NCBI GenBank assembly: GCA_964509455.1
Contig: CAZDXS010000075.1
Coordinates: 7,131-71,130, forward strand
Direction of reading: 5' to 3'
Source of the DNA: an uncultured Enterobacteriaceae bacterium
GTDB taxonomy: Bacteria; Pseudomonadota; Gammaproteobacteria; Eutrophobiales; Eutrophobiaceae
Length of the DNA stretch: 64,000 bases
The position numbers and the translations under genes are program-made. Under the pieces are notes generated by a model, which saw only the letters and a list, made by a program, of their open reading frames with translations, did no database searches and was not told the DNA's origin. Positions 30,391 through 54,802 of the stretch are shown here, in pieces; the stretch's first letter is position 1, and every line of letters starts with the position of its first letter.

Positions 30391-30804
30391 ATGGCCGACG
30401 GCAAACCAGACATTGCCCCGTATGAACGGGCGATCGAGCGGCTGAAAGAAACGCTGGCGCGGTACCAGGCCGACATCTCGGATACCGATGTGCGCGACAG
30501 CTTGGTGCATCGATTCGAATTCACCTACGAACTCAGCCCCCAGATGCTGAAACGCTATCTTGAATACGCGGTGGGCTCCTCCGAGAAGTTTAATACGATG
30601 GCGTTCCCAGACCTGATACGCACCGCAAACGAACATGGGCTGTTGCTGGGCGACTGGTTGAGTTGGAAAGAGTTCCGCAAGATGCGCGGCAAGACCAGCC
30701 ATTCTTACGACGAGAAGACCGCGCTGGAAGTGGTTGCGGAGATTCCGCAGTTTTTAGAAGAAGCTGCTTACCTGCGCGACCGGTTGCGGGAGCGGCTGGC
30801 ATGA
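30391..30804 (+). CDS. HEPN-domain protein, HI0074 family (nucleotidyltransferase substrate-binding protein); partner of MNT in a type II/VII TA pair
   Basis: Motifs RFEFTYELSPQMLKRYLEY and R.GKTSHSYDE (the R..xHxY motif) are present. The ORF is 137 aa. Confidence 0.8.
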   Translation: MADGKPDIAPYERAIERLKETLARYQADISDTDVRDSLVHRFEFTYELSPQMLKRYLEYAVGSSEKFNTMAFPDLIRTANEHGLLLGDWLSWKEFRKMRGKTSHSYDEKTALEVVAEIPQFLEEAAYLRDRLRERLA

Positions 30805-31849: not shown

Positions 31850-32035
31850 GCCGGACAAGACGCACCCGACTCTGGGGCAGGTCCCGGGGACGGTCGATGT
31901 CGCGCCGCCGGATAGCCGGCGCCGTTCCTAATGCGCTCCGTGCGGGTGCGCGGCCGGACAAGATACGCCTGACCCTGGGGCAGTCCTCCGGGAGCAGACG
32001 CTGTTGGCCGTCGGGCTACGGCGTCTGCCGCCCCT
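31850..32035. repeat. Degenerate duplicate(s) of the DUF2064-transferase 3' end downstream of the real stop
   Basis: On the minus strand ...RRRDIDRPRDL.. is encoded at 32034-32120 (real) and again at about 31873-31925. Confidence 0.6.
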
Positions 32036-32672
32036 ACCCGTTGCGGCTCCAGGCGGGCGGCCGCCAGGCCAGATGCGCCAGGTCCCGGGGGCGATCAATG
32101 TCGCGCCGCCGCGGCAACTCGCACACTTTCAACTGCAACCGCGCCGCCCGCGCCCGGGTGCGCCGCAGCACCGTGCCGCTCCCCCAGTCAATGCCGCTGA
32201 ACAGCGGTTCGTGCAGTCGGCTCATGCCCGCCAGGTAATAACCGCCGTCCCGGGTCGGCCCCAGCACGAGGTCGCAACCGCCGCGCAGTTGCGCCAGCGC
32301 CAGGTCAAGGTCGGCGGCGGCCAGGTCGGCGCAGTCGCTGCCCACCAGCACCGCGTGGCGATACTTGCCCAGGGCCTGCCGCAGGGCGATGCGCATGCGC
32401 TCGCCCAGGTCGCCGCCCCGTTGGCGCACCGGCGTCAGGGCGAAGCGGCGGGCATATTCAGACAGCGCACGATGCCGGGCGGTGGGGGCGCACCACAACT
32501 CTATATCCGTCAGCGCGGAGCGCCGCGCCGTCTCCAGGGTGCGCCGCAACAGGTAGTTGTGGAGCGCGGCGGCGCGCGCCGCGCCCAGAACGGGAACCAG
32601 GCGGGTCTTGACCCGGCCCGGCACGGGTGCGCGGGTGAAGACCAGCAACACCGCATCTTGCTCAGCCGTCAT
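32034..32672 (-). CDS. DUF2064 nucleotidyl/glycosyl-transferase-like protein (radical-SAM/selenodomain-associated 'transferase 1' family)
   Basis: The start is taken as MTAEQDAVLLVFTRAPVPGRVKTRLVP. It lies two genes downstream of the rSAM/Cys-rich protein, beyond the GT2 gene. Confidence 0.65.
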   Translation of the reverse strand: MTAEQDAVLLVFTRAPVPGRVKTRLVPVLGAARAAALHNYLLRRTLETARRSALTDIELWCAPTARHRALSEYARRFALTPVRQRGGDLGERMRIALRQALGKYRHAVLVGSDCADLAAADLDLALAQLRGGCDLVLGPTRDGGYYLAGMSRLHEPLFSGIDWGSGTVLRRTRARAARLQLKVCELPRRRDIDRPRDLAHLAWRPPAWSRNG

Positions 32673-33415
32673 GCAGCACGCACGGGGACGGCGCAGGACG
32701 CGGGGCGGGCGCCGCGGCGCAATGGGGACCGCTGCCGTGACGCCGGGCGCGCAACAGCGGCGCAACACGGCCGCCGCCGGGCAACGGAAACAGGCCGCGG
32801 GCGGAAGTCCCGGATTGTCGCCGTGGACGTCGCGCCGCGGCGCGAACGACGACCGCCGCCGCCCGCCCCGACTCAGTCATACTGCCGCGCCAGGGCGGCG
32901 GGGTTCGCCCCCAGGGCGTACCAGCCGCGCAGCTTCCACCTCAGCAGGATGGTCCTGATGACGCCGTGCGTCATGCAGCACGCACGGGGACGGCGCAGGA
33001 CGCGGGGCGGGCACCGCGGCGCAATGGGAGCCGCTGCCGTAACGCCGGGTGCGCAACAGCGGCGCAACACGGCCGCCGCCGGGCAACGGAAACAGGCCAT
33101 AGGTGGAAGCACCGGGCCGGCGCGCCCAGGGCGGGAACCAGGCGGGTCTTGACCCGGCCCGGCACGGGTGCGCGGGTGAAGACCAGCAACACCGCATCTT
33201 GCTCAGCCGTCATGCAACACGCACGGGGACGGCGCAGGAACGCGGGGCGGGCGCCGCGGCGCAATGGGGACCGCTACCGTGACGCCGGGCGCGCAACAGC
33301 GGCGCAACACGGCCGCCGCCGGGCAACGGAAACAAGCCGCGGGCGGGCGCCCCGGATTGTCGCCGTGGACGTCGCGCCGCGGCGCGAACAACGACCGCCG
33401 CCGCCCGCCCCGACT
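32673..33415. repeat. 3 diverged copies (about 240-300 bp) of the GT2-3'/intergenic/DUF2064-5' junction
   Basis: ILL.WKLR.WYALGANPAALARQYD* is encoded ending at 33415 and again at 32873. MTAEQDAVLLVFTRAPVPGRVKTRLVP is encoded starting at 32672 and again at about 33212. The motif gcagcacgcacggggacggcgcagga... occurs three times. Confidence 0.85.
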
Positions 33416-34089
33416 CAGTCATACTGCCGCGCCAGGGCGGCGGGGTTCGCCCCCAGGGCGTACCAGCAACGCAGCTTCCACATCAGCAGGATGGTCCTGG
33501 CGACGCCGTGCGTCTCCCAGCGGCGCGCGGAACTCAACGCCGGCTGCTCCATGCGCACCGGCGGCGCCAGCCGCCGGAGCCGGGCGCACAGCTCGATGTC
33601 TTCCATCAACGGCAGATCCGCGTAACCGCCCAGCCGCTGAAACAACCGCCTGCCCACAAAAATCGCCTGGTCGCCGGTGGCGATGCGGGTGAGGCGGGAA
33701 CGCAGGTTCATCAGCGTTTCAATGCACCGGAACACCGGGCGCTCACTCGCCAGGCGGGCGGTGAACCAGCCCCAGTTCTCTGCGCCAACCCGGCGCTGGT
33801 TCAGTGCCAAGTCAAAATCCCCAGGCAACAGGGTGTCCGCATGCAGAAACACCAGGACGGCGCCGGCGGCGCGGGCGGCGCCCCGGTTCATCTGCCGGGC
33901 GCGGCCCGGCGCACATTCCAGCACCTGGTCCGCCTGGTTCGCGGCCGCCGCGACAGTGCCGTCGACGCTGCCGCCGTCCGCCAGCAACACCTCGCAACCC
34001 CGCCGCCGGGCGGCTTGCAGGCGCTCTAAGGTCGCTCCCAAGCAACCAGCCTCGTTGCGTGCTGGGATGATGACCGAGTACCGCGGCAT
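33415..34089 (-). CDS. Family-2 glycosyltransferase (radical-SAM/selenodomain-associated 'transferase 2' family)
   Basis: The sequence begins MPRYSVIIPARNE and contains the DXD-type region LADGGSVDGT. The start overlaps the rSAM stop. Confidence 0.75.
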   Translation of the reverse strand: MPRYSVIIPARNEAGCLGATLERLQAARRRGCEVLLADGGSVDGTVAAAANQADQVLECAPGRARQMNRGAARAAGAVLVFLHADTLLPGDFDLALNQRRVGAENWGWFTARLASERPVFRCIETLMNLRSRLTRIATGDQAIFVGRRLFQRLGGYADLPLMEDIELCARLRRLAPPVRMEQPALSSARRWETHGVARTILLMWKLRCWYALGANPAALARQYD

Positions 34090-35051
34090 CAGGACAGGGC
34101 CCCGCCGCAGCTGCTGCCCTGCCCCGCCGTGCAACCGTAGCAATGGTCGCGCACGGTCACCGGCATGCCGGCAATGTCCGTGGTCAACAGGTCCCGCAAG
34201 TGCAACCGCCGCCCTGCGGCGCCGCCCAGCCCCAGTCCCAGCATCTGGTTGAAGTCACAATCGAACAGGCGGCCGCGCCAGTCCACGCTCACCAGGGTGC
34301 GACACATGACCGCCGACAGGTTCTCCGCCCGGTGCGCATCGCAGAGCAACGCCAGGTAATCCTGCAACCGTCCCTGGGAAACCAGCTCCTTGCCGAAGCG
34401 GTTGATGGGCATGTTGGCCAGGGTGAACAACTGGTTGAAGACGATGCCGTGCCGCTCGCGCAACTCCTGCTTGTAGCGCGCCTCCAGCTCCGCTTGCGGC
34501 GGCGGCAGGGCGGGCCCTTGCGGGTTATAGACCAGGTGCAACACCAGGCCCCGGTCCGGGTCGCCGTAGCCCAGCCGATTCAGCGTCTGCAAGGCGCGAA
34601 TGCTGGCCGCAAATACGCCCGCGCCCCGTTGCCCGTCCACGTTTTCCTCGCTGTAGCAGGGCAGCGAGGCGATGATTTCCACTTGTTGCGCCGCCAGGAA
34701 CGCCGCCAGGTCTTCGTAGCCGGGTTGTTCCAATATGGTCAGGTTGCAACGGTCGATGACCCGCGCGCCCAGTTCCCTGGCCGCCTGGACCAACCGGCGA
34801 AAGTCCTCGTGCATTTCCGGCGCGCCGCCGGTGACGTCCAGCGTTCCCAGCCCCAGCCGCTCCAGCACGGCAATGACCAGTTCGATGGTCTCCCGCGTCA
34901 TTTTCTCCCGCCGCCGGGGGTTGCTGTTGGTGTGACAGTGCAGGCAGGCCTGGTTGCACCTAAGCCCGATGTTGACTTGCAAGGTCTCTAAACGGGCGCG
35001 GCGCAACGGGGGGAAATCCGCGGGCGCCGGGCGAGACGGACTATTGTGCAT
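34089..35051 (-). CDS. Radical SAM protein with a C-terminal Cys-rich ('selenodomain'-type) domain, all-Cys version
   Basis: The CNQACLHC (CxxxCxxC) motif is present. The C-terminus is ...DHCYGCTAGQGSSCGGALS. The ORF is 320 aa. Confidence 0.75.
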   Translation of the reverse strand: MHNSPSRPAPADFPPLRRARLETLQVNIGLRCNQACLHCHTNSNPRRREKMTRETIELVIAVLERLGLGTLDVTGGAPEMHEDFRRLVQAARELGARVIDRCNLTILEQPGYEDLAAFLAAQQVEIIASLPCYSEENVDGQRGAGVFAASIRALQTLNRLGYGDPDRGLVLHLVYNPQGPALPPPQAELEARYKQELRERHGIVFNQLFTLANMPINRFGKELVSQGRLQDYLALLCDAHRAENLSAVMCRTLVSVDWRGRLFDCDFNQMLGLGLGGAAGRRLHLRDLLTTDIAGMPVTVRDHCYGCTAGQGSSCGGALS

Positions 35052-35127: not shown

Positions 35128-35204
35128 GCCCCGGTAGCTCAGCAGGATAGAGCGTCCGCCTCCTAAGCGGAAGGTCAGAGGTTCGAATCCTCTCCGGGGC
35201 GCCA
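35128..35204 (+). tRNA. tRNA-Arg (anticodon CCT)
   Basis: GCCCCGGTAGCTCAGCAGGATAGAGCGTCCGCCTCCTAAGCGGAAGGTCAGAGGTTCGAATCCTCTCCGGGGCGCCA folds as a cloverleaf with anticodon loop CTCCTAA. Confidence 0.85.
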
Positions 35205-35288: not shown

Positions 35289-36902
35289 GTGCATCAACCC
35301 ATGGTTACACGAGACGACACCCCGCTGGTCAAGACCCGCGCCTGGCGCAGGCTGGAAAAGCACCGGCGGCGGGCGGGCGAATTATGCTTGCGCGAGGCGT
35401 TCAGACAAGATCCGGACCGCGCCCGCCGGTTTTCCCTGGACCTTGGCGCCCTGTTCATCGATTACTCCCGCAATCTCATTACCGCAGAAACCCTGTCCCT
35501 GTTGTTGCAACTGGCGGAAGAACGCGCCCTGGGGGAAAAAATCCAGGGGCTGTTCAACGGCGAGCGGCTGAACGTCACGGAACGGCGTCCGGCCCTGCAC
35601 ACGCTGTTGCGGGCCCCGGAGGGCGCTTCCCTGGAGGCGGACGGAGTCGACCTGGCGCGACAAGCCAGGGCGGGGTTGCAACGAATGTTGCGGCTGGCCG
35701 CCGACCTGCGCGGCGGGCGGGTCCAGGGGGCTTCCGGAGAGACCATTGACCGGGTGGTGAACATCGGCATCGGCGGTGCGGACTTAGGCCCGCGCCTGCT
35801 CGCAGACGCCTTGGGCGAATTCTGTGCCGGCGCCCCGGCGCTGGATTTTGTCGCCAACGTGGACCCCGTCGAGTTGGAGCGCGTCCTGGCGCGCGCCAAT
35901 CCGCACACGACGCTGTTCGTGGTCTCTTCCAAGTCGTTCGCCACGGCGGAGACGCTGGCCAACGCCGCCCGCGCCCGGGACTGGTTGCAAAGCCATGGTT
36001 GCACCGCGACCGACAAGCACTTCATAGCGGTCTCGGGCAATACCGCCGCCGTCGCCCGCAGCGGGCTGGAGGCGCGCGCCCGTTTTGACGTTCCGGAATG
36101 GGTGGGCGGGCGCTACTCGGTGTGGTCGTGCGCCGGCCTGACCGCCGCGGTCGGCATGGGGGAGGAGAACTTTCGGCGCTTCCTGGCCGGCGGCCATGCG
36201 GTTGACCAGCATTTTCGCAGCGCCGCGTTCAGCGCAAACGCGCCGGTCGTCCTGGGCTTGCTGAGCGTCTGGCACAACAACTTCCTTGGCGTCGGCGCCC
36301 ATGCCGTCGTGCCGTACGAACAACGGTTGCGGCTCCTGCCGGCCTACCTGGGGCAACTGGTCATGGAGAGCAACGGCAAGTCGGTCACCGCGGACGGGTC
36401 GCCGACGGCAACGCCCACGGCGCAGGTTACCTGGGGCGGCACGGGCAGCAATGCGCAACATGCTTTTTTTCAGTTCCTGCACCAAGGCGCCCGCCGCTCT
36501 TCCGTCGACCTGCTGTTGCCCCTGGGCGGCCCTCATGACGACCGGCGGCGCGAGATGCTGGCGGCGGCTTGCCTGGCCCAGGGCGAGGCCCTGATGCGCG
36601 GCTGCGAGGACCCGGAGCCGGCGCGGCGCCTGGAGGGCAATCGCCCCGCCGTCACCATCCTGTACGATGCGCTGAGCCCCAGGACCCTGGGCATGTTGCT
36701 GGCCCTCTACGAGCATAAGACGTTCGTGGAAGCCGCCGTCTGGGGCATCAATCCCTTTGACCAGTGGGGCGTTGAGCTGGGAAAACAGCTGGCGGGGCGC
36801 ATCGCCGAAGAGCTGGAGCAAGGAGAGATCGACCCAGGCCACGACGCCTCCACCCGCTTGTTGATGGAGAAATACCTAACGGCCAGGGGGAGGCGCCGAT
36901 GA
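35289..36902 (+). CDS. pgi: Glucose-6-phosphate isomerase
   Basis: Motifs VVNIGIGGADLGPRL, FVVSSKSFATAETLANA and the pattern of conserved residues typical of PGI are present. The ORF is 537 aa. Confidence 0.9.
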   Translation: MHQPMVTRDDTPLVKTRAWRRLEKHRRRAGELCLREAFRQDPDRARRFSLDLGALFIDYSRNLITAETLSLLLQLAEERALGEKIQGLFNGERLNVTERRPALHTLLRAPEGASLEADGVDLARQARAGLQRMLRLAADLRGGRVQGASGETIDRVVNIGIGGADLGPRLLADALGEFCAGAPALDFVANVDPVELERVLARANPHTTLFVVSSKSFATAETLANAARARDWLQSHGCTATDKHFIAVSGNTAAVARSGLEARARFDVPEWVGGRYSVWSCAGLTAAVGMGEENFRRFLAGGHAVDQHFRSAAFSANAPVVLGLLSVWHNNFLGVGAHAVVPYEQRLRLLPAYLGQLVMESNGKSVTADGSPTATPTAQVTWGGTGSNAQHAFFQFLHQGARRSSVDLLLPLGGPHDDRRREMLAAACLAQGEALMRGCEDPEPARRLEGNRPAVTILYDALSPRTLGMLLALYEHKTFVEAAVWGINPFDQWGVELGKQLAGRIAEELEQGEIDPGHDASTRLLMEKYLTARGRRR

Positions 36903-37215
36903 CGGCGGCCGCCGCACCGGCGCCCGCGGCATGAAAGCCGTCATCCTGGCGGCCGGCGTCGGGCGACGCCTGGGGACCGCCGGCGGCGGCCAAGGGGAGG
37001 CGCCCATGACGGCGGCGGCGGCCGCACCGGACGCCGCGGCATGAAAGCCGTCATCCTGGCGGCCGGTGTCGGGCAACGCCTGGGGACCGCCGGCGGCGGC
37101 CAGGGGAAGGCGCCGATGACGGCGGCGGCCGCCGCGCCGGCGCCCGCGGCATGAAGGCCGTCATCCTGGCGGCCGGCGTCGGGCGGCGCCTGGGGACCGC
37201 CGGCGGCGGCGCACC
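36884..37215. repeat. 3 tandem copies (110-bp period) of the pgi-3'/nucleotidyltransferase-5' junction, with chained ATGA overlaps
   Basis: gcggcATGAA.GCCGTCATCCTGGCGGCCGG.GTCGGGC..CGCCTGGGGACCGCCGGCGGCGGC occurs with its ATG at 36931, 37041 and 37151. Only the last continues into the full gene. The first two make 39-aa chimeric ORFs (MKAVILAAGVGRRLGTAGGGQGEAPMTAAAA...). Confidence 0.85.
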
Positions 37216-37891
37216 CAAGTGCTTGTTGCGGTTCGGCGGCAAGTCCCTGTTGCAACGCCACTTGGAAAACCTGCGGCGCCTGGGCGTGCGGCGGGTCGTC
37301 GTGGTAACAGGCTACCGGCAGGACGCCGTGGCGGCCGCGTTGCGCGACCTGGCGCCGGCGATGCCGGTCGTTGCCCTGTTCAATCCGGACTACCGCCAGG
37401 GCAGCCTGCTGAGCTTGCACCGCGCCCGCGACCACCTGCAAGACGGCGCGGACGTCCTGCTGATGGACGCCGACGTGTTGTATGAACCGCGCCTGCTGGC
37501 CCGCCTGCTGGACACGAAGAAAGCCAACTGCTTCTTGCTGGACCGCGACTTTGAACCGGGCGATGAGCCGGTGAAACTGTGCGTGGCGGGCGGGGCCCTG
37601 GTGGAATTCAGCAAGAAAATAGCGCAAAATCAGCACTATGATTACCAGGGCGAATCCGTGGGTTTTTTTCGCTTCGACGCGGCGGTTGCGGCGCGTCTCG
37701 CCGTGCGCGCCGCCGCGTACATCGCCGCCGGACAACGGCAGGCGCCTTACGAGGAGGCAATCCGCGACCTGCTCCTGGAAACGCCGGAGGCGTTCGGCTT
37801 CGAGGATGTCACCGGGTGCGCCTGGATCGAGATTGATTTTCCCGCCGACGTGGCCCGTGCGCAAGCGCTCGTAGGCGGGATTGACGCCTGA
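37151..37891 (+). CDS. Sugar-phosphate/phosphonate nucleotidyltransferase (NTP-transferase domain, LicC/CMP-AEP-synthase-like)
   Basis: The N-terminus MKAVILAAGVGRRLG is a GXGXR motif. It is adjacent to PEP mutase. Confidence 0.7.
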   Translation: MKAVILAAGVGRRLGTAGGGAPKCLLRFGGKSLLQRHLENLRRLGVRRVVVVTGYRQDAVAAALRDLAPAMPVVALFNPDYRQGSLLSLHRARDHLQDGADVLLMDADVLYEPRLLARLLDTKKANCFLLDRDFEPGDEPVKLCVAGGALVEFSKKIAQNQHYDYQGESVGFFRFDAAVAARLAVRAAAYIAAGQRQAPYEEAIRDLLLETPEAFGFEDVTGCAWIEIDFPADVARAQALVGGIDA

Positions 37892-37894
37892 GCC

Positions 37895-39544
37895 ATGACC
37901 GCGGCGACCGGCGCGACAACCCCAGGGGACAGCAAGGCCCGGCAACTGCGGCGCCTGGTGGAATCGCCGCAACTGGAATTCATCATGGAGGCCCACAACG
38001 GCATTTCGGCGCGCCTGGCGCAACAGGCCGGCTTCAAGGGAATATGGGCCGGCGGCTTGGCCCTGTCCGCCCAGTTCGGCGTGCGGGACAGCAACGAGGC
38101 CAGCTGGACCCAGGTGGTGGACATGCTGGAGTTCATGTCGGACGCCGCCGACATTCCCATCTTGCTGGACGGCGACACCGGTTACGGCAATTTCAACAAC
38201 ATGCGGCGGCTGGTCAGGAAGCTGGAGCAACGCGACATTGCCGGCGTCTGCATAGAAGACAAGCAGTTCCCCAAGACCAACAGCTTCATCGCCGGCGAGC
38301 GCCAGGCGCTGGCCGACCCGGAAGAGTTCTGCGGCAAGATCAAGGCGGGGAAAGACAGCCAGTCCGATCCGGACTTTTGCATCATCGCGCGGGTGGAGGC
38401 GCTGATCGCCGGCCGCGGCATGGACGAGGCGCTGGAGCGAGCGGCGGCCTACGCCGCGGCCGGCGCCGACGCCGTCCTGGTTCACAGCAAGCGGGCGCGC
38501 CCCGACGAAATCCTCGCCTTCGCCAGGGACTGGGACGGCGCCGCGCCCCTGGTCATCGTGCCCACGAAATACTACAGCACGCCCGCCGACGTGTTCAGGG
38601 AAGCCGGCGTCAGCCTGGTGATCTGGGCCAACCACCTGATTCGCGCCGCTGTCGCGGCCATGGAAAACGTCAGCCGCCAGATCTTCGAGCAGGAATCGCT
38701 CACCGGCGTGGAAGACCGCATTGCCGGCATCGAGCGGATTTTCGAGTTGCAAGGCGCTGCGGAGCTGTTGCGGGCGGAAGAGCGCTACCTGGAAAAGCCG
38801 CGGGATTGTCGCGCCGTCGTGCTGGCGGCCAGTCGCGGCAACAACCTGTACGAGCTGACCGAAGACCGCCCCAAGACCATGCTGCGCATCGGCGGCAAGC
38901 CCCTGTTGCAGAGGCTGGCGGACGAGTTCCGGCGCCAATCCGTCCATCGCGTAACAGTGGCGGCCGGTTACCGGGCGGAGGCGCTGACCGTTGACGGCAT
39001 AGACGTCTGCCTCAACCCGGATTACGCGACCACGGGCGAGTTGCGCTCCTTGGTCTGCGCCCGGGAACGGTTCAGCGATGAGATGGTGATCGTCTATGGC
39101 GACTTGCTGTTCCGTTCCTACATCCTGCGGGACCTGCTGGAATGTGCGGCGGAAATCGTCATCGTCGTCGATTCCCTGGCCGCCGCGACGCCGCCCAGCG
39201 GCACGCCGGATTACGTCTATTGCGACCGCCCCGACGACCGCGCCATGTTCATGCGCCCCGTTGCGTTGCAGCGGGTCGAGTCGGGGCAGGTCCCGGACCA
39301 GGGCCGGCCGGCGGGGCGCTGGGTCGGGATGATGAAAGTCAGCGGCGGCGGCCGGGCGCAACTGGAGGAGGCGCTGACGGCGCTGGAGCAACAGGATGAC
39401 TTTGACCAGCTGGCGATGCCCGACCTGCTCAACTGCCTGGTGCGCCAGGGCAGGGTCGTGACCGTCCTCTATGTGACCGGGCACTGGCTGGACGTGAACT
39501 CCATCGATGATCTGTCCCTGGCCGGCGATTTTACCGCCGCCTGA
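37895..39544 (+). CDS. Phosphoenolpyruvate phosphomutase fused to a C-terminal nucleotidyltransferase domain
   Basis: The N-terminal half carries PEP-mutase motifs ([36 protein letters not shown]). The C-terminal roughly 230 aa is an NTP-transferase-like fold. Confidence 0.8.
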
Positions 39545-39619
39545 GACGGGCGCGGGGCCGCGCGGGCGCGGCGGCGAGCGCAGGCACGGCGAGCGCCGCC
39601 GCGAACCTGTAACGCACTC

Positions 39620-40777
39620 ATGATCGAGGCACGGACTTTCGTGGAAGCCGCGGCGGAGCGCGGGTTCAGCCGTTACGTCGGCGTTCCCTGTTCCTACCTT
39701 ACGCCTTTCATCAACTACGTCATCAACGACCCCGGGCTGGACTACGTCTCATCCGCCAACGAGGGGGACGCGGCGGCGACGGCGGCGGGACTGGCTACGG
39801 GCGGCGAACGCGCCATCGTGATGTTGCAGAACTCCGGCCTGGGCAACGCGGTGAACCCCCTGACCTCCCTGGCGATGGTGTTCGACGTTCCCATGTTGCT
39901 CATCGTCACCCACCGGGGCAAGCCGGACCAAAAGGATGAGCCGCAACACCAGTTGATGGGACGCATCACCACGAACCTGTTCGAGCTGATGGAGATCCCC
40001 TGGGCGCCGTTTCCCGCCAGGGCGCAGGAAGTCCCCGCGGCGCTGGACCGGGCCGACCGGTTCCTGCGGGAGCGGCAACAACCTTACGCCCTGCTCATGG
40101 AGCGAGACACGGTGTCTCCCCACCCCCTGGAGGGGGAAGCCGTTCCCAGCCGCGCCGGCGCCGCCTGCCGGCGGCAACGCTTTCCGGGCGGGGAAGACGC
40201 CGAGCTGGTCTCCAGGCAAGCGGCCCTGCGGGAGATCGTGCGTTGCGCGCCCCTGGAAAACGCCGTGGTGATAGCCACCACCGGCTACACCGGGCGGGCA
40301 CTGTACGCGCTGGAAGACCGCAACAACCAGCTGTACCTGGCGGGCTCCATGGGTTGCGCCTCGGCGTTCGCCCTGGGGCTGGCCCGGGCGCACCCGGACC
40401 TGGCGACGGTGGTCATCGACGGCGACGGCGCCGCGCTCATGCGCCTGGGCAATTTCGCCACTCTCGGCAGTTACGGAGCGGACAACCTGGCGCACATACT
40501 GCTGGACAACGAGATGCACGAATCGACCGGCGGCCAGGCCACAACGGCCGCCAACGTGGAGTTTGCCGACCTGGCGGCGGCCTGCGGTTACGGGCTGGCT
40601 TTCAGCGGCCGCAACCCGGCATTGATCGGGGCGGCCTGCACTGCTGACGGGGTGAACGGGGCCCGTTTTGCGCACCTGAAAACAGCGCCGGGAACGCCCG
40701 CCGACCTGCCGCGCCCGCAAATAGCGCCGCGAGACGCGTTGCGGCGGCTGATGGCGCACATCGGCGCCGCTTTTTAG
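39620..40777 (+). CDS. Phosphonopyruvate decarboxylase (TPP-dependent, sulfopyruvate-decarboxylase-like)
   Basis: The ORF is 385 aa. The N-terminal TPP-Pyr region reads GVPCSYLTPFINY. The C-terminal TPP-PP region contains GDGAALM. It lies immediately downstream of PEP mutase. Confidence 0.75.
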   Translation: MIEARTFVEAAAERGFSRYVGVPCSYLTPFINYVINDPGLDYVSSANEGDAAATAAGLATGGERAIVMLQNSGLGNAVNPLTSLAMVFDVPMLLIVTHRGKPDQKDEPQHQLMGRITTNLFELMEIPWAPFPARAQEVPAALDRADRFLRERQQPYALLMERDTVSPHPLEGEAVPSRAGAACRRQRFPGGEDAELVSRQAALREIVRCAPLENAVVIATTGYTGRALYALEDRNNQLYLAGSMGCASAFALGLARAHPDLATVVIDGDGAALMRLGNFATLGSYGADNLAHILLDNEMHESTGGQATTAANVEFADLAAACGYGLAFSGRNPALIGAACTADGVNGARFAHLKTAPGTPADLPRPQIAPRDALRRLMAHIGAAF

Positions 40778-40950
40778 CGCTGGCCAGCGCCAGCTCCCGA
40801 ATAAACCGCAACAGCGCCGGGAACGCCCGCCGACCTGCCGCGTCCGCAGGTAGCGCCGCGAGACGTGTTGCGACGGCAGACGGCGCACAGCGGCACCGCA
40901 CTTAGCGCCGCCCGGCGCCGGGGCTTGCGCAACCGGTCGGCAGCTCTCGA
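40660..40950. repeat. 2 diverged copies (about 145 bp) of a convergent junction (decarboxylase 3' end plus dxs 3' end)
   Basis: agcgccgggaacgcccgccgacctgccgcg.ccgca..tagcgccgcgagacg.gttgcg.cggc and ctc.cgaataaaccgcaaca.cgcc each occur twice. Confidence 0.8.
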
Positions 40951-42788
40951 ATAAACCGCAACAACGCCGCGGCGGTGAGTTGTGCGTCCTCCAACATGTC
41001 CTGTTGTGAGCCGTGGGGGATCAGGCGGTCCGGCAAACCGTAGTTGACGATGCGGCAGGTGCGGCCCGCCGCCGCCAGACATTCATTGACTGCGCTGCCG
41101 GCGCCGCCCTGCACTGCATTCTCCTCCACGGTGACCAGCAACTCATACTCCGCCGCCAGTTGCAGAACCAGATCCTGGTCCAGGGGCTTGACGAAACGCA
41201 TGTTGGCCACGGCGGCGTCCAGCTCCTCGGCCGCTTCCAGCGCCGCCGCCAGCGGGGAGCCAAACGCCAGCAAGGCGATCTTGCTGCCCGAGCGGCGCAT
41301 CTCTCCCTTGCCCAGGGGCAGGGCCGTCATCTCTTCTTGCACTGGAACGCCCGGCCCGGCGCCGCGCGGGTAGCGCACCGCCGCGGGCTGGTCCAGCAAA
41401 AACCCGGTGTACAACATCTGCCGACATTCGTTTTCATCCGCCGGCGCCATGATCGCCATGTTGGGCAGGCAACGCAGGAAACTGAGGTCGTAGGCGCCGT
41501 TGTGCGTGGGGCCGTCGGCGCCCACCAGGCCGGCGCGGTCAATGGCGAACAGCACCGGCAGGTTCTGGTTCACCACGTCATGCACCACCTGGTCGTAGGC
41601 CCGTTGCAAGAAAGTGGAATAGATGGCGACCACGGGCTTTAGGCCGCCGCATGCCATGCCCGCGGCGACGGCAACGCTGTGTTGCTCGGCAATGGCCACG
41701 TCAAAATAGCGCTCCGGATATTCCTGCTCGAACCGCACCAGCCCGGAGCCTTCCCGCATCGCCGGCGTGATGGCGACCAGGCGCGGGTCCCGAGCCGCCA
41801 TGTCGCAGAGCCAATCGCCGAAGACCTTGCTGTACGTGGGCCCGGCGCCGCCGGAGGACTTCTCCATGCCGATTTCCGGGTCGAACGGGCTTACCGCGTG
41901 GTACTTGACCGGGTCGGCTTCCGCCGGCGCATAACCCTTGCCCTTGCGGGTGATTACGTGCAGGAACTGCGGCCCCTCCAGCCGGCGGATGTTGCGTATG
42001 GTCTCCAGCAACGTGGGCAGGTGGTGGCCGTCAATGGGGCCGATGTAGTTGAAGCCGAACTCCTCGAACAGCACGCCCGGCACGATCAACCCCTTGATGT
42101 GCTCCTCGGCGCGGCGGGCGACCTCCCATGCGGGCGGCATGCGGGACAGCACTTTCTTGCCCGTTTTGCGGACGGTGGTATACAACTTGCCGGACAGCAC
42201 CTGGGCGAAGCGGTTGGCCAGGGCGCCCACGTTGGGCGAGATGGACATGTTGTTGTCGTTGAGCACCACCAGCAGGTCGGCGTCCACGGCGCCGGCGTGG
42301 TTCAGCGCTTCAAACGCCATGCCCGCCGTCAGCCCGCCGTCGCCGATGACGGCAACGGCCCGGTGCGCGGCGCCGGTGTTGCGGGCCGCCAGGGCCATCC
42401 CCAGGGCGGCGCTGATGGAAGTGCTGGAATGTCCCACCCCGAACGTGTCGTAAGGGCTTTCGTCCCGCTTGGGAAACGGCGCCAGCCCGCCGCGCTTGCG
42501 GATGGTATGCAACCGGTCGCGGCGCCCGGTGAGAATCTTGTGGCCGTAGGCCTGGTGTCCCACGTCCCACACCAGCTGGTCATCCGGCGTATTGAATACG
42601 TAATGCAAGGCGATGGTGAGCTCCACCGCGCCCAGGCTGGCGGCAAAGTGCCCGCTGTTGCGACTGGCCCAGTGCAACAACACCGCGCGCAACTCCTGCG
42701 CCAGCGGCTCTAAGCGCTCCTCCGGCAACCGCCGCAGGTCGGCGGGCGAGTTGATGTTGTCCAGTATGGGGGTGCTTGGTTCTGACAT
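40902..42788 (-). CDS. dxs: 1-deoxy-D-xylulose-5-phosphate synthase
   Basis: The TPP motif [18 protein letters not shown] is present. Motifs [12 protein letters not shown] and [13 protein letters not shown] are present. The start was chosen at [21 protein letters not shown]. The ORF-track N-terminal extension was rejected. The C-terminal tail runs into the repeat. Confidence 0.9.
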
Positions 42789-43266
42789 TACGGTTCTATT
42801 ATACCGTTGCCCGGCTCCTGGCTGGTTATTTTCCGCGATAACTTTGTTGGCGCACTCCCTCACTGCGGTCGATGTATTGGATATACACCTCCCTTGTTCA
42901 GTCGTGCGCCGCCGCGTTCTCACGCAAAATTCCTGCGCTAGGGTCGACCTCGTCATTCAGCCGGGTCTCCGCAAAGCAGGCAACGCCGGAATTTCGCTGT
43001 TGCCTGAGCAAAACGCGGTTGCCCGGCTCCCGGCTGGTTGTTTTCCGCGATAACTGCGTTGGCGCTGCTCTCTTGCGACCGAACGAGGCAGGCCGGCGAT
43101 GCATAACGGAAAACAGGCAAGCCAGGTTCCTGGCGCAGGATATTTTCTGGAAGGCGAGCCGGGCAACGAGTGAGGGAGAGAGATGTACACGTAGTACATT
43201 GACCGACCGAACGAGGCAGGCCGGCGATGCATAACGGAAAATAGACGCGCCAGGCAAGCCAGGAGA
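42789..43266. promoter_or_regulatory. Lower-GC intergenic region upstream of dxs with two pairs of direct repeats and one inverted repeat
   Basis: gttgcccggctcc.ggctggtt.ttttccgcgataact occurs at about 42816 and 43019. cgaccgaacgaggcaggccggcgatgcataacggaaaa occurs at about 43075 and 43203. gagccgggcaac at about 43153 is the inverted partner. Confidence 0.4.
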
Positions 43267-45406: not shown

Positions 45407-47758
45407 TCATAGCTTCCCCCGGTCCACGGTCAGCAACAGCGGCGGCAACAGCAGAAAATCAGCAAGCAACGCAAACACGATGGCGCCGCTCACCATCAAC
45501 CCCAGGGACCAGCTGACCTCGAACCCCGACAAGGTGAAGACCAAAAAGCCCGCGGCCAGCATCAGGGTGGTGGTCCACAGGGCCGGCCCCACGGTGCGGA
45601 ACGTGTAGCGCACCGCCTCCGCTGCCGGGTTTCCCGCGCGCCGCGACGCCAGGTACTTGCTGAGAAAATGCGTCGTGTCGTCGACGATGACGCCGAACGC
45701 GATGGCGGTCATCACGGACCCGGCCAGCCCCACCTTGCCCACCAGGTAGCCCCAGGCGCCGGAGCTCATGGCCGCGGGAATGAGATTGGGCGCCAGGCTG
45801 AGCAACCCCAGGCGCGCGCTTCGGAACGCCAGGACAAACACGAAAGAGATGACGACCATGGCGATGATCGTGGCGCGCAGCATGCTCTCGATGTTGCGTT
45901 GCGACAAGTGGGCAAAGGTGATGCTGAGGCCGGTAGCGGGCGTTGCAAGGTCGGGCTCGTTGGTGCGCAACCAGGCCTGGGCGCGCGCGTCCAGTTCGCG
46001 CAACTGTTGCGAGGACACGTGGCCGCGCACCGTTGCGGTCAGGCGGGCGGCGGACCGGGCCGTGTCCAGTCGGTGGTTGAGATCCATGCCGAAAGGCAAC
46101 GACAACTCGTACAGCAACAGGTACTGGGCGGCGAGTTCCGCGGCGCCGGGCAGACGATAAAAGGCCGGGTCATCGCCGTGCATGTTGCGGTTGAGGCGCT
46201 TCATCACGTCCGTGAAAGCCTGGACGTGGGAGACCTCCGGTTGCTCACGCAACCAGGCGGCGAACTCATCGACGGCGCGCAGGTAGTCGGGCTCGGTAAT
46301 GCCGCCGGCGCGCCCGGCTTCCAGGGAGTATTCCAGCGTCTCCATGCCGGTCAGGTTTGCCAGCACGAAGTCCGTATCGCGCCGAAACCGGTACTTCTCG
46401 TCGAAGTACTGCGTCCAGTTGTCGGTCAGCTCGTTGCGGGGAATGCCCGCCAGCAACGCCAGCACCAGCAGGGAAACCGACCAGAGCAACGCCCGGCGGC
46501 GGGCGATGACAAACTCGGCGAGGCGTTCAGCGATGCGCGGCCGGCGGGCGCGTCGCGGCCGCAACGGCAACACGCACAGCAGGGCCGGCAACAAGGTCAT
46601 GGAATAGACCAAGGCGCACAACACGCCGCACGCCACCAGGTTGCCCAGCACGTGAAACGGCGGCGAATCCGAAGAGTTCAGGGTGAGAAACCCGCCGGCG
46701 GTGGTGACCGAGGTGAGCAACACCGGCCAGGCGTTGCTGCGCAGCGAGGCGCGCACCGCCGCCCTTTTCTCCAGCCCGGCGGCCATGCCGGCCAGCACGG
46801 TGGCGATGATGTGAATGGAATCCGCCACGGCAATGGTCATGATGATGAGCGGCACGCCGGCGTTGACGGGATTGAACACCGTGCCGATCCAGCCGGCGAA
46901 TCCCATGGCGGTGTTCACGGTGAACATCACCACGAGGAGGGTCGCTATGACGCCCGGCACGGAACGCAGCAACAGGGCGCCCGCCAACAGGATGACCAGC
47001 AACACGACCGGCGCCAGGTTTTCCATGTCGTCCCTGGCGGCGTCCGCAAAAGCGCGGTTCAACGGCACGTCGCCGGTGAGATAACAGCGGATTGCCGGGC
47101 GGGACGCACACTCTTGTTCCAGCAATGCATCCAGGTAGTCGGTGATCTCCAGCACCGCCGCGTCCTGGTTTTCCGGCAGGGCGAAGCTGATGACGACACC
47201 CGCCGCGCGTCCGTCCCGGGCGACCAGGCGCCCGACCAGCTCGGTCGAACCCAGGGCAATCTCCGCCGCGCGCGCCAGGCCGGCGTCATCCAGGGAAGCC
47301 CCCCCGGTGACCAGGGGTTGCACTACCAGGTCGTCCCCCTGCGCTTCGCTGTGGTTGTAGTTGGTGAGGGAGTCGACCCGGGCGGCGTACGGCGCGCGCC
47401 AGGCCGCCTCGGTCACGGCCTCCACCGCGCCCAGGGCCTGGCGGGTGAACACCGTGCCGGACTGCGGCGCCACGGCGATGAGCGCCGCGTTGGATCGGGC
47501 ATAGGTTGCTTCCATGGCGTCGAACGCCGCCAGGTGCGGGTTGTCCGCCGCGAACAGGCTGCGGTAATCATTGGTTGTGCCGATGAAGCGGGCGCCGCCG
47601 GTCATGCCCAACATGAACAGGGTCGCCAGCGCGAGGACCGGCCAGGGGCGCCGCAGGATGAAATCAAGGCAGGTCTCCAACAGCGCCGGCAACCGGGTGA
47701 CGACCATGACGGACGATAAGGAAACAGCGCGACGGGAGCCGGCGACCCTTCTGGTCAC
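45407..47758 (-). CDS. RND-superfamily (MMPL/HpnN-like) exporter
   Basis: The ORF is 783 aa with 12 TM helices in two 6-TM bundles and periplasmic loops. It is adjacent to LolA-like and beta-barrel genes. Confidence 0.8.
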   Translation of the reverse strand: MTRRVAGSRRAVSLSSVMVVTRLPALLETCLDFILRRPWPVLALATLFMLGMTGGARFIGTTNDYRSLFAADNPHLAAFDAMEATYARSNAALIAVAPQSGTVFTRQALGAVEAVTEAAWRAPYAARVDSLTNYNHSEAQGDDLVVQPLVTGGASLDDAGLARAAEIALGSTELVGRLVARDGRAAGVVISFALPENQDAAVLEITDYLDALLEQECASRPAIRCYLTGDVPLNRAFADAARDDMENLAPVVLLVILLAGALLLRSVPGVIATLLVVMFTVNTAMGFAGWIGTVFNPVNAGVPLIIMTIAVADSIHIIATVLAGMAAGLEKRAAVRASLRSNAWPVLLTSVTTAGGFLTLNSSDSPPFHVLGNLVACGVLCALVYSMTLLPALLCVLPLRPRRARRPRIAERLAEFVIARRRALLWSVSLLVLALLAGIPRNELTDNWTQYFDEKYRFRRDTDFVLANLTGMETLEYSLEAGRAGGITEPDYLRAVDEFAAWLREQPEVSHVQAFTDVMKRLNRNMHGDDPAFYRLPGAAELAAQYLLLYELSLPFGMDLNHRLDTARSAARLTATVRGHVSSQQLRELDARAQAWLRTNEPDLATPATGLSITFAHLSQRNIESMLRATIIAMVVISFVFVLAFRSARLGLLSLAPNLIPAAMSSGAWGYLVGKVGLAGSVMTAIAFGVIVDDTTHFLSKYLASRRAGNPAAEAVRYTFRTVGPALWTTTLMLAAGFLVFTLSGFEVSWSLGLMVSGAIVFALLADFLLLPPLLLTVDRGKL

Positions 47759-48921: not shown

Positions 48922-49474
48922 TGCTTGCTGTCAGTCGTGTTTGTGTGCGCGTACGGAACCGGGCACGCATTGCGTCAACAGGAGAACCAGCCCTGCAAAT
49001 CCGCCATGCGGGACGCCGCGCAACAGGGGTTTGCCGCGTTGCCGCCCCAGGACCCGCTTTGCGGTCCTGGGCGCACACGACGCCCCGCAGTATACCGCTT
49101 TGAGCGGCGGGCTGTCCACCTGTTTTGCCTTGCCCCGCCGGCGCAAATTCTGGCTGGCCTCCGTTCTCAAGGTCAAGATATCGTTCCCGGTCGCTGTGCA
49201 AGAGTAGCAGAACCGGGTTGCGTTTGCCGGTTTTTGTGCCGGCGGCTCGCATGTCTGGCGCGATTCCGGACAAAACATTGCAATTTTTACGGCGGTGTAC
49301 TATGCTCCGGAGCAGGACGTGGTTGAACTGACTTGTATGTTGCACTGTGAGGGCTATGAGAAAAGACATCGCTGTTCGTTTCCGGGCATGCCCGCGGCCT
49401 GTTCCGGCACGGCCGTGTGCGCCTGGTGCACAGGAACAATCGTCTGATTTACTGCCTGGGAGGGGGTTTTGAGT

Positions 49475-52400
49475 ATGAAGCAGATAACCAGAGTGCTGGA
49501 TGAACACGGCAGGGAGATCCTTGCCCGCCTTGATTTTAACGGCGACGGGACGGTCGAACGCGTGGTGCGCTACGTGCGGAATGACGACGGCAACATAATC
49601 CGCACCGATTACGACAACAACGCAGACAGCTGGATTGAGCGCATCGTTTTTGACCATGATGCGGATGGCGTCGCGGATCGTACCGAATACTGGCGAAACT
49701 ATGCGGATTCGATTCATGTCGATGTCAGCGGCGACAGTTTCAGCGGCATACCTTGGGCTGATTCTGGCAGGGACAGGGACGGCGCCGTGGATTCGGTCAA
49801 GTATTCCACGCGGGATGAGAGTCGTAACTTGGCTTACTATGACCATGATGAGGGGGCGGACGGCATCCTGGATAGGACTGTCGTGCAGACGCTGAATGAG
49901 GCCGGTCGCCTCAAGGAGTCCAGATGGTATGACCCGCCGTTTTCCTACAGGGTGGCGACCGATAATGGGAGTGCTGTTTTTTCTGCCGACATAGGTCGCA
50001 ACGCGGCGCCGGCGTTAGCGGACCTGGACGGCGACGGCGATCCGGACCTGGTGGTTGGCTCCAGGTCCGGCGAAATTCATTACTTTGAGAACACCGGCAA
50101 CGCCGCGGCGTCGACGTTCACGCAGCGGACGGGCGCAGAAGCTGACGATAATCCCAACCCCAACCCGTTCCATGACATTGACGTGGGACCTGACGATGAG
50201 GAAGACCTCATTGTCAACGCCATGCCGGTGCTGGCGGACCTGGACGGGGACGGCGACCTGGACCTGGCGGTGGGCAGGGACGATGGGACCATCGAGTATT
50301 ATGAAAACACAGGCAACGCGACATCCCCGGTGTTCACGGACCGAACGGGTGAAGATGCCGACCCTTTCCGCAATCTTGACGGAATCGGCGACCGCCCGGC
50401 GCCGACGTTCGAGGACTTAGACGGCGATGACGACCTGGACCTGGTGGTAGGCAAAAACGACGGCAGCATCGGCTATTACGAGAACACGGGCGGCGCCGCG
50501 GTGCCGACGTTCACAAAACGGACGGGCGCCGGCGTCAATCCTTTTCATGGCGTTGTCGGCGCGAGCTCCGGTGCCGCGCCGGCTTTCGTGGATGTAGACC
50601 GGGACAGCGACCCGGACCTGGTGGTGGGCCGCAGCGACGGCGGCTTCGCCTACTATGAGAACACCAGCAACCGTAGCGTTTCGGGGAACGCCGGTAGTGT
50701 TGCGGCGCTGACATTCACCAGGCGGGAGGGCGACGCCAACCCTTTCAACGACCTGGTCACAGAGAGATGGTCGGCGCCGGCTTTCGCGGTCTGGGGCATT
50801 GCTCCGGTGCCGGAACTCGTGGTTGGAGACCAAGAGGGAACGCTCACCTATTATGAGCCGACGCTTTCCTCCTATAGCTTGTTCGTGCGGGGTGCGGGAG
50901 GGCCCGACGCACGGATAATGCGGGTGGGCAGCGATGAGGATGGGGACGGCGCCCTGGACCGGATTGCACACATCACGCACGGTCCTTTCAGCAATATTGC
51001 CAGCAGCAGAATCCGCACGGATGTTGTCGAAGGTGCGGGGCTGGACATCAACGACGACCTTGACGTCAACCGGATTGATCATACCTACTTTTACCCCAAT
51101 GCGAACGGCGCCACGGCTCGTCGAGAGCACTACACGCGCGATGCCGCCGGCAACAAAATCCGCACGGAAGTTGACAAGGAGGCGGACGGCGTCCTGGACT
51201 GGGTTGAAGCATACACCCTGAATGCCGCCGGTCATCGCACCAAGGTTGCCCGGTATGACTTTCCCCTGTCCTACGAGACCGGGGGCGCCAACCTCCTTGC
51301 TTTCGACGATGCCACCGTGGACGTGGGTGATTATTCTGCGCCGGTATTCGAGGACCTGGACGGCGACGGAGACCTTGACTTGATAGTAGGCGAAGGCCTC
51401 GGCAACATTAAGTACTTTGAGAACACCGGCAATGCCGCGGCGCCGGCGTTCGAGGAACGGACGGGCAACACGGGCAACAATCCCAATCCTTTTGACGGCA
51501 TTGACGTGGATGATCGTTCGACTCCGACGTTCGCGGACCTGAACGACGACGGCGACCTGGACCTGGTATTGGGCAGGGACGACGGGACCCTCGTCTATTA
51601 CGAGAACACGGGCGGTGCCACGGCACCGGCGTTCACCAAACGGACGGGCGCCAAGGGCAACGACAACCCCAACCACGATCCTTTCCATGGTTTTGACGTG
51701 GGCGACCGTTCGGCGCCGACATTCGTGGACCTGGACGACGACGGCGACCTGGATCTGGTGGTGGGCAAAAACGACGGCGCCATCAAGTATTACGAGAACA
51801 CGGGGGATGCGGCGGCGCCGGAATTTACGGAACGGACGGGCGCCGGGAGCGCCGAAAACCCAGACCACAACCCTTTCGAGGGCATTGACGCGGGGTCCAA
51901 CGCCGCGCCGACGTTCACGGACTGGGATAGGGACGGCGACCTGGACCTAGTGGTGGGCGAGCGTGACGGCACATTAGAGTATTACGAGAACACCGGCAGC
52001 GAATCGGCGCCGGCGTTCGAGGAGCGGACGGGCGACACGGGCGATCATCCCAATCCTTTCCATGGCTTCGACGCAGGTTCCAGGTCAACGCCGGTTTTTG
52101 CGGATCTGAACGGCGACAGCGTATCGGAGCTTATGGTCGGCGCCTCTTCCGGCAAAATCAAGCGCCATGAGCCAATGCTTTCCCGGGTTGAAACCTACAC
52201 TCTGGATGGAAACGGGGATGTGGTGCGGACTGCTTTCGATGACGACGCGGACGGAACCGTGGACCGGGTGGAGCATTACACCTTGGACGCCGGCCGCCGG
52301 ACGCAAGCCAGGATAGACAACGACGCGGACGGAACCGTGGACCGGATAGAGCATTACGCCCTGAACGACGCCGGCCACCGGACGCACGCAAGAATGGACA

Positions 52401-54685: not shown

Positions 54686-54802
54686 CAATGCCCCTGCCTG
54701 GCAATATCAGCGGGTATTGCGTGTGCAAGATTGTGCCGACAGTGCTATGCTTGCAGATATCCGCGGACTTGTGTTCCCGACCCGCGGGGAGGGTAAGTGA
54801 AA

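Follow-up and report, generated by a model that had tools for sequence, protein, structure and literature searches.

A three-gene phosphonate biosynthesis core between pgi and dxs in an uncultured gammaproteobacterium

Introduction

Which phosphonate does a bacterium make, and where does it go, when the genes for the opening steps of the pathway stand together with two nucleotidyltransferase modules and no aminotransferase gene accompanies them? The question is raised by a 64-kb stretch of contig CAZDXS010000075.1 (hereafter the window, meaning the whole stretch of DNA that was analysed) from an uncultured gammaproteobacterium. Three genes lie there between pgi and dxs: a stand-alone nucleotidyltransferase (NT) gene; aepX, which codes for a phosphoenolpyruvate (PEP) mutase (PepM, or Ppm) carrying a second NT domain at its C-terminus; and aepY (ppd), which codes for phosphonopyruvate decarboxylase (Ppd). 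The analysis has confirmed that this cassette is a real phosphonate biosynthesis core. The account favoured below, and considered moderately probable, is that of a split pathway in which 2-aminoethylphosphonate (AEP) would be made, activated with cytidine monophosphate (CMP) and put on a membrane lipid, the AEP aminotransferase (AEPT) and the lipid transferase being encoded elsewhere in the genome.

Identity of the Three Core Enzymes

The stand-alone NT (37151..37891, plus strand) is a LicC/PntC-like protein of 246 aa, recognized as a MobA-like NTP transferase (PF12804 NTP_transf_3, 2e-21). Its stop codon is separated by 3 nt from aepX (37895..39544, plus strand; 549 aa). The catalytic domain of the PEP mutase occupies aa 18-288 (37946..38758, plus strand), and the PF13714 PEP_mutase match spans aa 18-263 (6.8e-60). 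The fused NT domain takes up aa ~305-549 (38807..39541, plus strand) and was recognized from a PF12804 match at aa 307-424 (1.4e-13) and from an AlphaFold (AF2) model. After a gap of 75 nt follows aepY (39620..40777, plus strand), a thiamine pyrophosphate (TPP)-dependent decarboxylase of 385 aa composed of TPP_enzyme_N and TPP_enzyme_C domains. The GC content at third codon positions (GC3) is 0.83-0.87 in the three genes, which is of the coding type (window GC 67 %). Open reading frames (ORFs) and domain scans agree with the first-pass annotation, which had placed these three genes side by side, next to dxs and pgi.

The AepX protein passes the curated equivalog model of PEP mutase (TIGR02320, 386.9 bits against a cut-off of 319.55) and stays below the cut-offs of the sister models, with 253.1 against 374.4 bits for phosphonopyruvate hydrolase (TIGR02321) and 146.6 against 354.4 for the methylisocitrate lyase PrpB. 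Residues 14-301 can be aligned one by one with the crystallized PEP mutase of Mytilus (1M1B, E = 3.5e-125), and the domain carries both the catalytic Asp-containing segment and EDKx5NS, a motif (EDKXXXXXNS) that is specific to Ppm (PMC6697681). AepY passes TIGR03297 (405.2 bits, cut-off 312.5); sulfopyruvate decarboxylase models remain below threshold (beta subunit 116.5 against 221.5, alpha 88 against 148), acetolactate synthase (ALS) models reach at most 36 bits, and a sulfopyruvate decarboxylase was ruled out on these scores. On homology, the identities of PepM and Ppd can be regarded as secure. The claim that the first two steps to phosphonoacetaldehyde are encoded here holds, and so do both identities that had been put up for scrutiny with it: a mutase with the Asp and insert that tell it from lyase homologues, and a decarboxylase of neither the sulfopyruvate nor the acetolactate synthase kind.

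The cassette had also been called biosynthetic. The opposite view, phosphonate catabolism by a phosphonopyruvate hydrolase (PalA-like) or by the pathway run in reverse, draws on the fact that the PepM family includes this hydrolase, and on the secondary TIGR02321 match. That match falls short of its cut-off, whereas the mutase model passes its own and EDKx5NS is present. The Ppd reaction is irreversible and runs towards biosynthesis. No genes for PhnW, PhnX, PhnA or a transporter were found near the cassette. As far as model scores and motifs can tell, the catabolic reading is effectively refuted, and its probability is put at next to nil.

The Cassette in Related Genomes

A scan of reference genomes yielded 80 loci, whose ORFs were called and clustered; counts are given over 81 related loci. 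The cassette genes keep the same order throughout: the PepM-NT fusion is present in 81/81 loci, the stand-alone NT in 77/81 and Ppd in 72/81. A cassette that recurs in one order across 81 loci is not a chance arrangement. The AEPT gene (TIGR03301, 422 bits) lies directly 3' of ppd in 48/81 loci, dxs is found 3' of the cassette in 33/81, and pgi 5' of it in 31/81; many of the loci also have a CDP-OH transferase and an oxygenase gene on the upstream side. For the fusion protein at least 8000 homologues were retrieved at E < 1e-20, all with the PepM plus PF12804 layout, and the best non-self matches (73-74 % identity) come from uncultured Gammaproteobacteria. Triple NT-PepM-NT fusions also occur naturally (P0077, 797 aa; an 842-aa ORF in locus L065).

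The fusion had been presented as a notable feature of the locus, but it is not unusual: ~33 % of all Ppm enzymes carry a fused PF12804 NT domain (Rice 2019, PMC6697681), and an adjoining second PntC defines the largest family of Ppm clusters (PMC8942020). Li & Horsman (2022, PMC8942020) describe that family as Burkholderiales_CDP-OH; it is the counterpart of the Group 1 phosphonolipids in Yu et al. Its seven-gene core comprises Ppm, Ppd, AEPT, an alpha-ketoglutarate oxygenase, two PntCs (one of them fused to Ppm) and two phospholipid genes (PMC8942020).

A tblastn search of plasmid and chromid records found aepX of Burkholderia and Mycetohabitans at ~61 % identity over the full length (535 aa). 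In Mycetohabitans rhizoxinica HKI 454 the locus on pBRH01 (RBRH_RS14505-RS14470) begins with a CDP-alcohol phosphatidyltransferase, a 2-oxoglutarate (2OG)-Fe(II) oxygenase, an LPG-synthase-domain protein and a 'phosphocholine cytidylyltransferase family protein', and continues with aepX, aepY, an AEP aminotransferase and dxs, with an MMPL transporter further on. The stand-alone NT, aepX and aepY have the same order in the window, dxs is adjacent in both, and the identities are 51 % (NT), 61 % (aepX), 52 % (aepY) and 60 % (dxs). The window cassette is thus orthologous to the first half of a cluster type already known, and the adjacency of dxs is itself ancient. The window differs from Mycetohabitans and from Group 1 in that its 64 kb contain no AEPT, 2OG-Fe(II) oxygenase, CDP-alcohol phosphatidyltransferase or LPG-synthase-domain gene. 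It further differs from Mycetohabitans in having dxs inverted, convergent with the cassette, in having pgi and a tRNA-Arg gene upstream, and in its host, an uncultured gammaproteobacterium. The window locus is a reduced copy of a common, already described cluster family, for which membrane lipids are the predicted product.

Lipid and hopanoid genes are the regular companions of the cassette. In 41/81 loci a member of the hpn family is encoded at most 10 kb away. In distant Gammaproteobacteria an HpnC/D-like squalene synthase, HpnG, a resistance-nodulation-division (RND) protein of ~880 aa, a CDP-alcohol phosphatidyltransferase, HpnA, HpnL and a 2OG-oxygenase-like protein are encoded upstream, and AEPT, dxs, HpnH, HpnB, HpnM and MlaA downstream. 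The cassette is interleaved with hopanoid genes (including an HpnN-like RND), a CDP-alcohol phosphatidyltransferase and MlaA in L063, L064, L065, L068, L078 and L079, and also in the cyanobacterial loci L044, L058, L059 and L061, so the linkage of phosphonate and hopanoid genes recurs in two phyla. The CDP-alcohol phosphatidyltransferase, the LPG-synthase/HpnL-like protein and the 2OG oxygenase are present in L063, L064, L078, the Nostoc loci and Mycetohabitans. The recurrent partners across the 81 loci are CDP-alcohol phosphatidyltransferase, LPG-synthase/HpnL-like protein, hpn genes, MlaA, MMPL transporters and dxs. In the literature, phosphonate-terpene linkage appears only as a 'possible phosphonoterpene' in Nitrosococcus, an idea based only on co-localization and an antiSMASH hybrid-cluster call (PMC8942020; PMC7285500). 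This 'phosphonate-terpene' gene cluster family (GCF 731) is likewise gammaproteobacterial and has the same cassette type beside squalene synthase, cyclase and hopanoid genes; it encodes AEPT, unlike the window, which has no hpn gene and keeps only dxs.

These partners bear on where the phosphonate ends up. Decoration of a glycan or lipid had been proposed, and decoration of pili or of giant surface proteins had been posed as a question. Of the first pair, the lipid is favoured by the recurrent lipid-gene partners and the glycan found no partner. A phosphonate on a glycan or surface protein (pili, giant FG-GAP/repeat proteins), in the style of LicD-type phosphonoglycans, would agree with the CMP-AEP logic common to Lic-type glycan tailoring (PMC6697681) and with the presence, within 10-20 kb, of three giant repeat proteins and a pilus cluster of the type II secretion system (T2SS)/mannose-sensitive haemagglutinin (MSHA) type. 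The pilus-type genes (secretin, T2SSE with MshEN, T2SSF), which had been reported about 20 kb off, are indeed there, at 14.5-20 kb, and their distance from the cassette is ~17 kb. Nothing links them or the giant proteins to it. Among the ~20 most recurrent annotated neighbour clusters of the 81 loci, which are of the lipid/hopanoid kind, there is no pilus, giant adhesin, LicD-type, sulfatase-type or glycan-transferase family; the window offers no LicD, sulfatase/EptA-type transferase or glycosyltransferase as a partner of the cassette; and the Ppm sequence falls in the phosphonolipid-type family. Glycan or protein decoration is very unlikely.

Two Nucleotidyltransferase Modules

The stand-alone NT and the fused NT domain are paralogues (35 % identity over 131 residues). 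Both have the LicC-like PF12804 fold of the PntCs Tde1415 and Ari1348 (PMC6697681; 6PD1/6PD2), with identities to the characterized PntCs of only 18-25 %. The PntCs characterized by Rice et al. are stand-alone or AEPT-fused PF12804 enzymes and make CMP-AEP (PMC6697681); Tde1415 is AEPT-fused and Ari1348 free, so that neither is joined to Ppm as the window domain is. The best PDB sequence match of the stand-alone NT is 6PD1 (Tde PntC-AEPT, E = 9.3e-9, aa 2-229). The AF2 model of the fused domain (pLDDT 78, pTM 0.82) finds its best fold matches in 6PD1/6PD2 (E = 2e-14, TM 0.71-0.73). Two NT modules beside PepM and Ppd imply a CMP-activated phosphonate, in agreement with the nucleotide-activated product that had been predicted.

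The modules part company at the P-loop. The PntC consensus is GXG(T/S)RX4-8PK, and Arg15, Lys25 and Lys153 are needed for the activity of Tde-PntC (Rice et al. 2019, PMC6697681). The stand-alone NT shares the GxGxR...PK signature of the characterized PntCs in canonical form, LAAGVGRRL-x8-PK, and the motif is kept in 72/77 family members. The fused domain carries the variant LAASRGNNL...RPK, which retains the Lys, has Asn at the Arg15 position (by alignment with LicC) and has an Arg 3 residues earlier. The same division is seen in Mycetohabitans, with canonical GxGxR in the stand-alone NT and LAASRG in the fused domain. Among representatives taken at 50 % identity and reaching down to ~30 % identity, LAA[S/A/G/T][R/K/Q]G is present in 16/16 PepM-fused proteins (P0121-P0270) and GxGxR in 0/16; the canonical form is confined to genuine stand-alone proteins of ~260 aa. 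The variant is also that of the fused domains in the 81-locus family and in Burkholderiales.

A second difference lies at the substrate. In Tde PntC the amine of AEP is touched by the acidic residues Glu104 and Glu196 (PMC6697681). At the corresponding [E/D]-x-D motif the stand-alone NT reads D-A-D, with a LicC-like Asp106 in place of Glu104, and it shares the equivalent of Glu196 with the characterized PntCs as a conserved E201. The fused domain reads Y-G-D and has Tyr at the amine-contact position, as judged by motif register, the second acidic position not being alignable. Because many of its polar residues are invariant, the fused domain is probably no dead domain but a working enzyme that grips the nucleotide or the substrate differently. 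The P-loop census suggests the hypothesis that the stand-alone NT is the true PntC and that the fused domain does something else.

One could go further and regard the locus as a self-sufficient module, in which the fused domain would activate a phosphonate other than AEP, the CMP-activated product ending on a membrane lipid, possibly a hopanoid. With its SRG P-loop, no Arg15 equivalent and Tyr at the amine contact, the domain is unlike the characterized PntCs and would suit a substrate that lacks the amine, for instance hydroxyethylphosphonate or a species derived from phosphonoacetaldehyde; the hopanoid is suggested by the recurrent interleaving of cassette and hpn genes in relatives. As a whole this proposal is judged quite unlikely. 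A parallel exists in Fom1 of the fosfomycin pathway, where Ppm is likewise physically joined to a nucleotidyltransferase, one that activates a phosphonate intermediate further down the pathway. Its cytidylyltransferase, however, is an N-terminal PF01467 domain that acts on hydroxyethylphosphonate (PMC6697681), whereas the window domain is C-terminal and matches PF12804/PF00483 only; with no N-terminal PF01467, a Fom1-type fusion was ruled out by domain type.

A Clade without a Linked Aminotransferase

The absence of an aminotransferase from the cassette, already remarked in the first-pass annotation, extends to the whole window. A neighbour-joining tree of the fusion protein places the window together with eight relatives (L001-L007 and L011), all of which show the order pgi > NT > PepM-NT > Ppd > < dxs and no AEPT, despite enough contig to hold it. 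Two further loci, L017 and L020, also have none, and sister lineages keep it. The lack of a linked AEPT is a clade-level trait, not a peculiarity of the window locus.

A cluster of which 4/7 Group 1 core genes are absent locally, which has tandem junction duplications at both borders and which has received mobile insertions inside the cassette in relatives, might be taken for the decaying remnant of a once-complete cluster whose product is useless. The state of the genes speaks otherwise: the three ORFs are intact with coding-type GC3, the catalytic motifs are in place, and the duplications leave the reading frames untouched. Identities within the clade are 61-64 % for NT, 78-83 % for the PepM domain, 61-63 % for the fused NT and 60-65 % for Ppd, compared with 55-62 % for pgi. 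Over nine clade members the cassette proteins are conserved at least as well as pgi, and are therefore under constraint and maintained. Decay is highly unlikely.

The missing aminotransferase might instead mean a different product. According to this alternative, the clade without AEPT makes a non-amino phosphonate: an unlinked or atypical enzyme would reduce phosphonoacetaldehyde or modify it in another way, for example to 2-hydroxyethylphosphonate (HEP), and one of the NT modules would activate the product. It is encouraged by the loss of AEPT from the cluster in the window clade, L017 and L020 although their contigs have room; by the Tyr of the fused NT where PntC and LicC have the amine-contacting acid (E104/D105), and by its different P-loop; and by Fom1 as the precedent of a Ppm-fused cytidylyltransferase acting on HEP. 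Li & Horsman saw possible new chemistry in Ppm+Ppd neighbourhoods that have no known branch enzyme ('post-Ppd other'), which make up ~13 % of neighbourhoods (PMC8942020). Yet the variant fused NT is also that of all AEPT-containing relatives and of Burkholderiales, and is therefore no response to AEPT having been lost. Near the cassette, the clade members share no conserved alcohol dehydrogenase or other candidate enzyme, and relocation of a gene is the simpler explanation. A non-amino product is considered unlikely.

Relocation agrees with the sister lineages, in which the transferase genes are already gone from the 10 kb on either side of the cassette and AEPT is still there; since these lineages lack linked transferase genes and yet keep AEPT, splitting of the cluster is usual here. 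Their AEPTs are 55-65 % identical to one another. By the scheme of Li & Horsman the window would be filed under 'post-Ppd other'; by phylogeny, however, it is a member of an AEPT-type family with an often split cluster.

In two clade members additional genes interrupt the block: an AAA-ATPase-like pair between ppd and dxs (L002, 13608-15729) and a Dam-type methylase-like gene with a partner between aepX and ppd (L006, 12712-15123). They were considered as a substitute aminotransferase or reductase and rejected; by inspection of their sequences they look like mobile ATPase and methylase insertions. In the sister lineages (L009-L029, L046, L047, L060, L073, L074 and L080) one or two paralogous Ser/Thr kinases of ~430 aa, with a C-terminal cyclic-nucleotide (cNMP)-binding domain, are encoded beside pgi on the opposite strand. 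When both are present they bracket pgi, one then lying between pgi and the NT gene; none is found in the window clade.

Proposed Pathway

In the split pathway favoured here, PepM would convert PEP to phosphonopyruvate, and Ppd would convert phosphonopyruvate to phosphonoacetaldehyde, thereby pulling the unfavourable mutase equilibrium; both steps are backed by strong homology. An aminotransferase encoded elsewhere would form AEP, and the stand-alone NT, with its canonical P-loop, would use CTP to make CMP-AEP, as the PntC precedent suggests. The Ppm-fused domain, with its rewired P-loop, might perform a second nucleotidyl transfer or have an accessory role. Finally, an enzyme of the CDP-alcohol-phosphatidyltransferase type, also encoded elsewhere, would move the activated phosphonate to a membrane lipid, a step suggested by the gene partners of the relatives. 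The pathway genes would be split across the genome in this lineage, only the core having stayed between pgi and dxs.

Several observations weigh against this pathway. AEPT was found neither in the cassette nor in the 64-kb window, by tblastn with AEPTs from four loci and by family scans. Representatives of the CDP-OH transferase, of the oxygenase and of HpnA/B/G/H/L/M/C-D gave 0 tblastn matches in the 64 kb, where an LPG-synthase/HpnL-like gene was not found either. Family scans of the other plausible genes of the window revealed no alcohol dehydrogenase, reductase or phosphonate transferase. That AEPT and transferase are encoded elsewhere is an assumption, the search having covered the 64-kb window and the loci of relatives. 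The fused domain is devoid of the Arg15 equivalent that is necessary in PntC (Rice et al.), and a literature search found no report of an assay of any Ppm-fused PF12804 domain. For the Group 1 family as a whole, no product has been chemically characterized (PMC8942020).

Borders of the Cassette

Upstream of the cassette lies pgi (35289..36902, plus strand), which codes for glucose-6-phosphate isomerase (NF001211, 637.9 bits against a cut-off of 492). It is preceded at 84 nt by a tRNA-Arg (CCT) gene (35128..35204, plus strand; ARAGORN; Rfam RF00005, 71.8 bits), which likely marks the start of the co-directional block. Downstream, dxs (40902..42956, minus strand; TIGR00204, 881.8 bits, far above cut-off) converges on the cassette. 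Its longest ORF has 684 aa, compared with 619-660 aa in relatives, and ~56 N-terminal residues are unmatched in family models and relatives. Family alignments start only at aa ~62 of the ORF, which makes the Met near 42788 the probable true start. A terminator-like hairpin is located at 40747-40769, by the ppd stop; apart from this hairpin and two tRNAs, Rfam and promoter scans round the cassette gave nothing informative.

Both borders are duplicated. At the pgi/NT junction a unit of 110 bp is repeated three times in tandem (36880..37227; Tandem Repeats Finder (TRF): period 110, 3.0 copies, 90 % matches). The unit is made up of the 3' end of pgi (last ~20 nt), a spacer of 30 nt and ~63 nt from the beginning of NT, and its copies are 90 % and 84 % identical. 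As read from the sequence, it creates decoy ATGs at 36933 and 37043, each opening an ORF of ~36 codons whose TGA overlaps the next ATG. At the other border the 3' end of ppd and the 3' tail of dxs are covered by a diverged duplication of ~129-150 bp in two copies (40681..40969; repeat pairs of 90 nt at 90 % and 32 nt at 91 %). The reading frames flanking the duplications are intact, and no such repeats were found at the same positions in relatives.

The Logan contig L081, which comes from an independent short-read assembly, is 100 % identical to the window over positions 37145-40710. It terminates within the repeat at either border (at 40710 in the first copy of the ppd/dxs duplication), so that a branch of the assembly graph is present in the raw data at these places as well. 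An assembler artefact is unlikely, given this break at each repeat and the divergence of 10-16 % between the copies. The repeats were also considered as the mark of a recent insertion of the cassette, which was ruled out: the order pgi-cassette-dxs is ancestral (31-33 loci), and the adjacency of dxs reaches Burkholderiales.

Comparable duplications exist elsewhere in the window. A segment of ~541 bp is present twice (95-97 % identical), with an extra 147-bp copy, at 32577-33521, where the TIGR04282 gene (32034-32768, minus strand) meets the TIGR04283 glycosyltransferase gene (33415-34143, minus strand). Smaller intergenic tandem repeats were found at 14303-14412 and 20199-20352, and a 330-bp repeat in two copies at 6868-7539. 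The genome seems prone to junction duplications.

Other Genes of the Window

The two genes just named belong to an 'arsenosugar-type' trio directly 5' of pgi (32034-35051, minus strand), which consists of a CofC-like protein (TIGR04282), a glycosyltransferase (TIGR04283) and an ArsS radical SAM protein (TIGR04167, 447 bits). Two or more of these genes are found at the same place by the cassette in L001, L002, L006, L007, L055 and L067, and all three in L055 and L067. A functional link of the trio to unusual lipid head groups is possible.

Beyond dxs, the segment 43267-48921 (minus strand) codes for a weakly DUF1302-like protein, a LolA_like/DUF1329 protein, an RND of the MMPL/HAE3 type (783 aa) and an MpaB/Lcp-type oxygenase-domain protein. 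The set, which may serve the export of lipids or hydrophobes, occupies the spot that HpnH-HpnB-HpnM-MlaA have in the closest relatives. The RND (45407-47758) was tried as an HpnN orthologue and ruled out (91.9 bits against a cut-off of 751.85); with the Mycetohabitans MMPL protein it shares 29 % identity.

Family scans elsewhere in the window recognized UvrD, GshA, a pseudopilin, T2SS/MSHA components, an EamA transporter and FG-GAP giants, and left several genes with no family match. The giant repeat protein at 21792-29954 (minus strand; 2720 aa) matches no Pfam family and consists of Asp/Gly-rich repeats of 81 nt (27 aa). The giants at 49469-54685 and 54797-59641 (both plus strand) contain FG-GAP/FG-GAP_3 repeats, and the one of 1614 aa also has similar 81-nt repeats. 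A small PF08780 'nucleotidyltransferase substrate binding protein like' gene (30391-30804, plus strand; 3.9e-30) is unrelated to the cassette, and no cognate minimal nucleotidyltransferase was identified as its partner.

Conclusions

The commonest phosphonate gene clusters of bacterial genomes are Ppm clusters of the phosphonolipid type. The window locus is a natural minimal version of them, NT, PepM-NT and Ppd, kept in a clade with no linked AEPT, and as such it could help to tell which steps are obligatorily coupled. For the organism, the core means a capacity for reduced-phosphorus compounds, which are probably membrane components, and this bears on phosphorus cycling in its environment.

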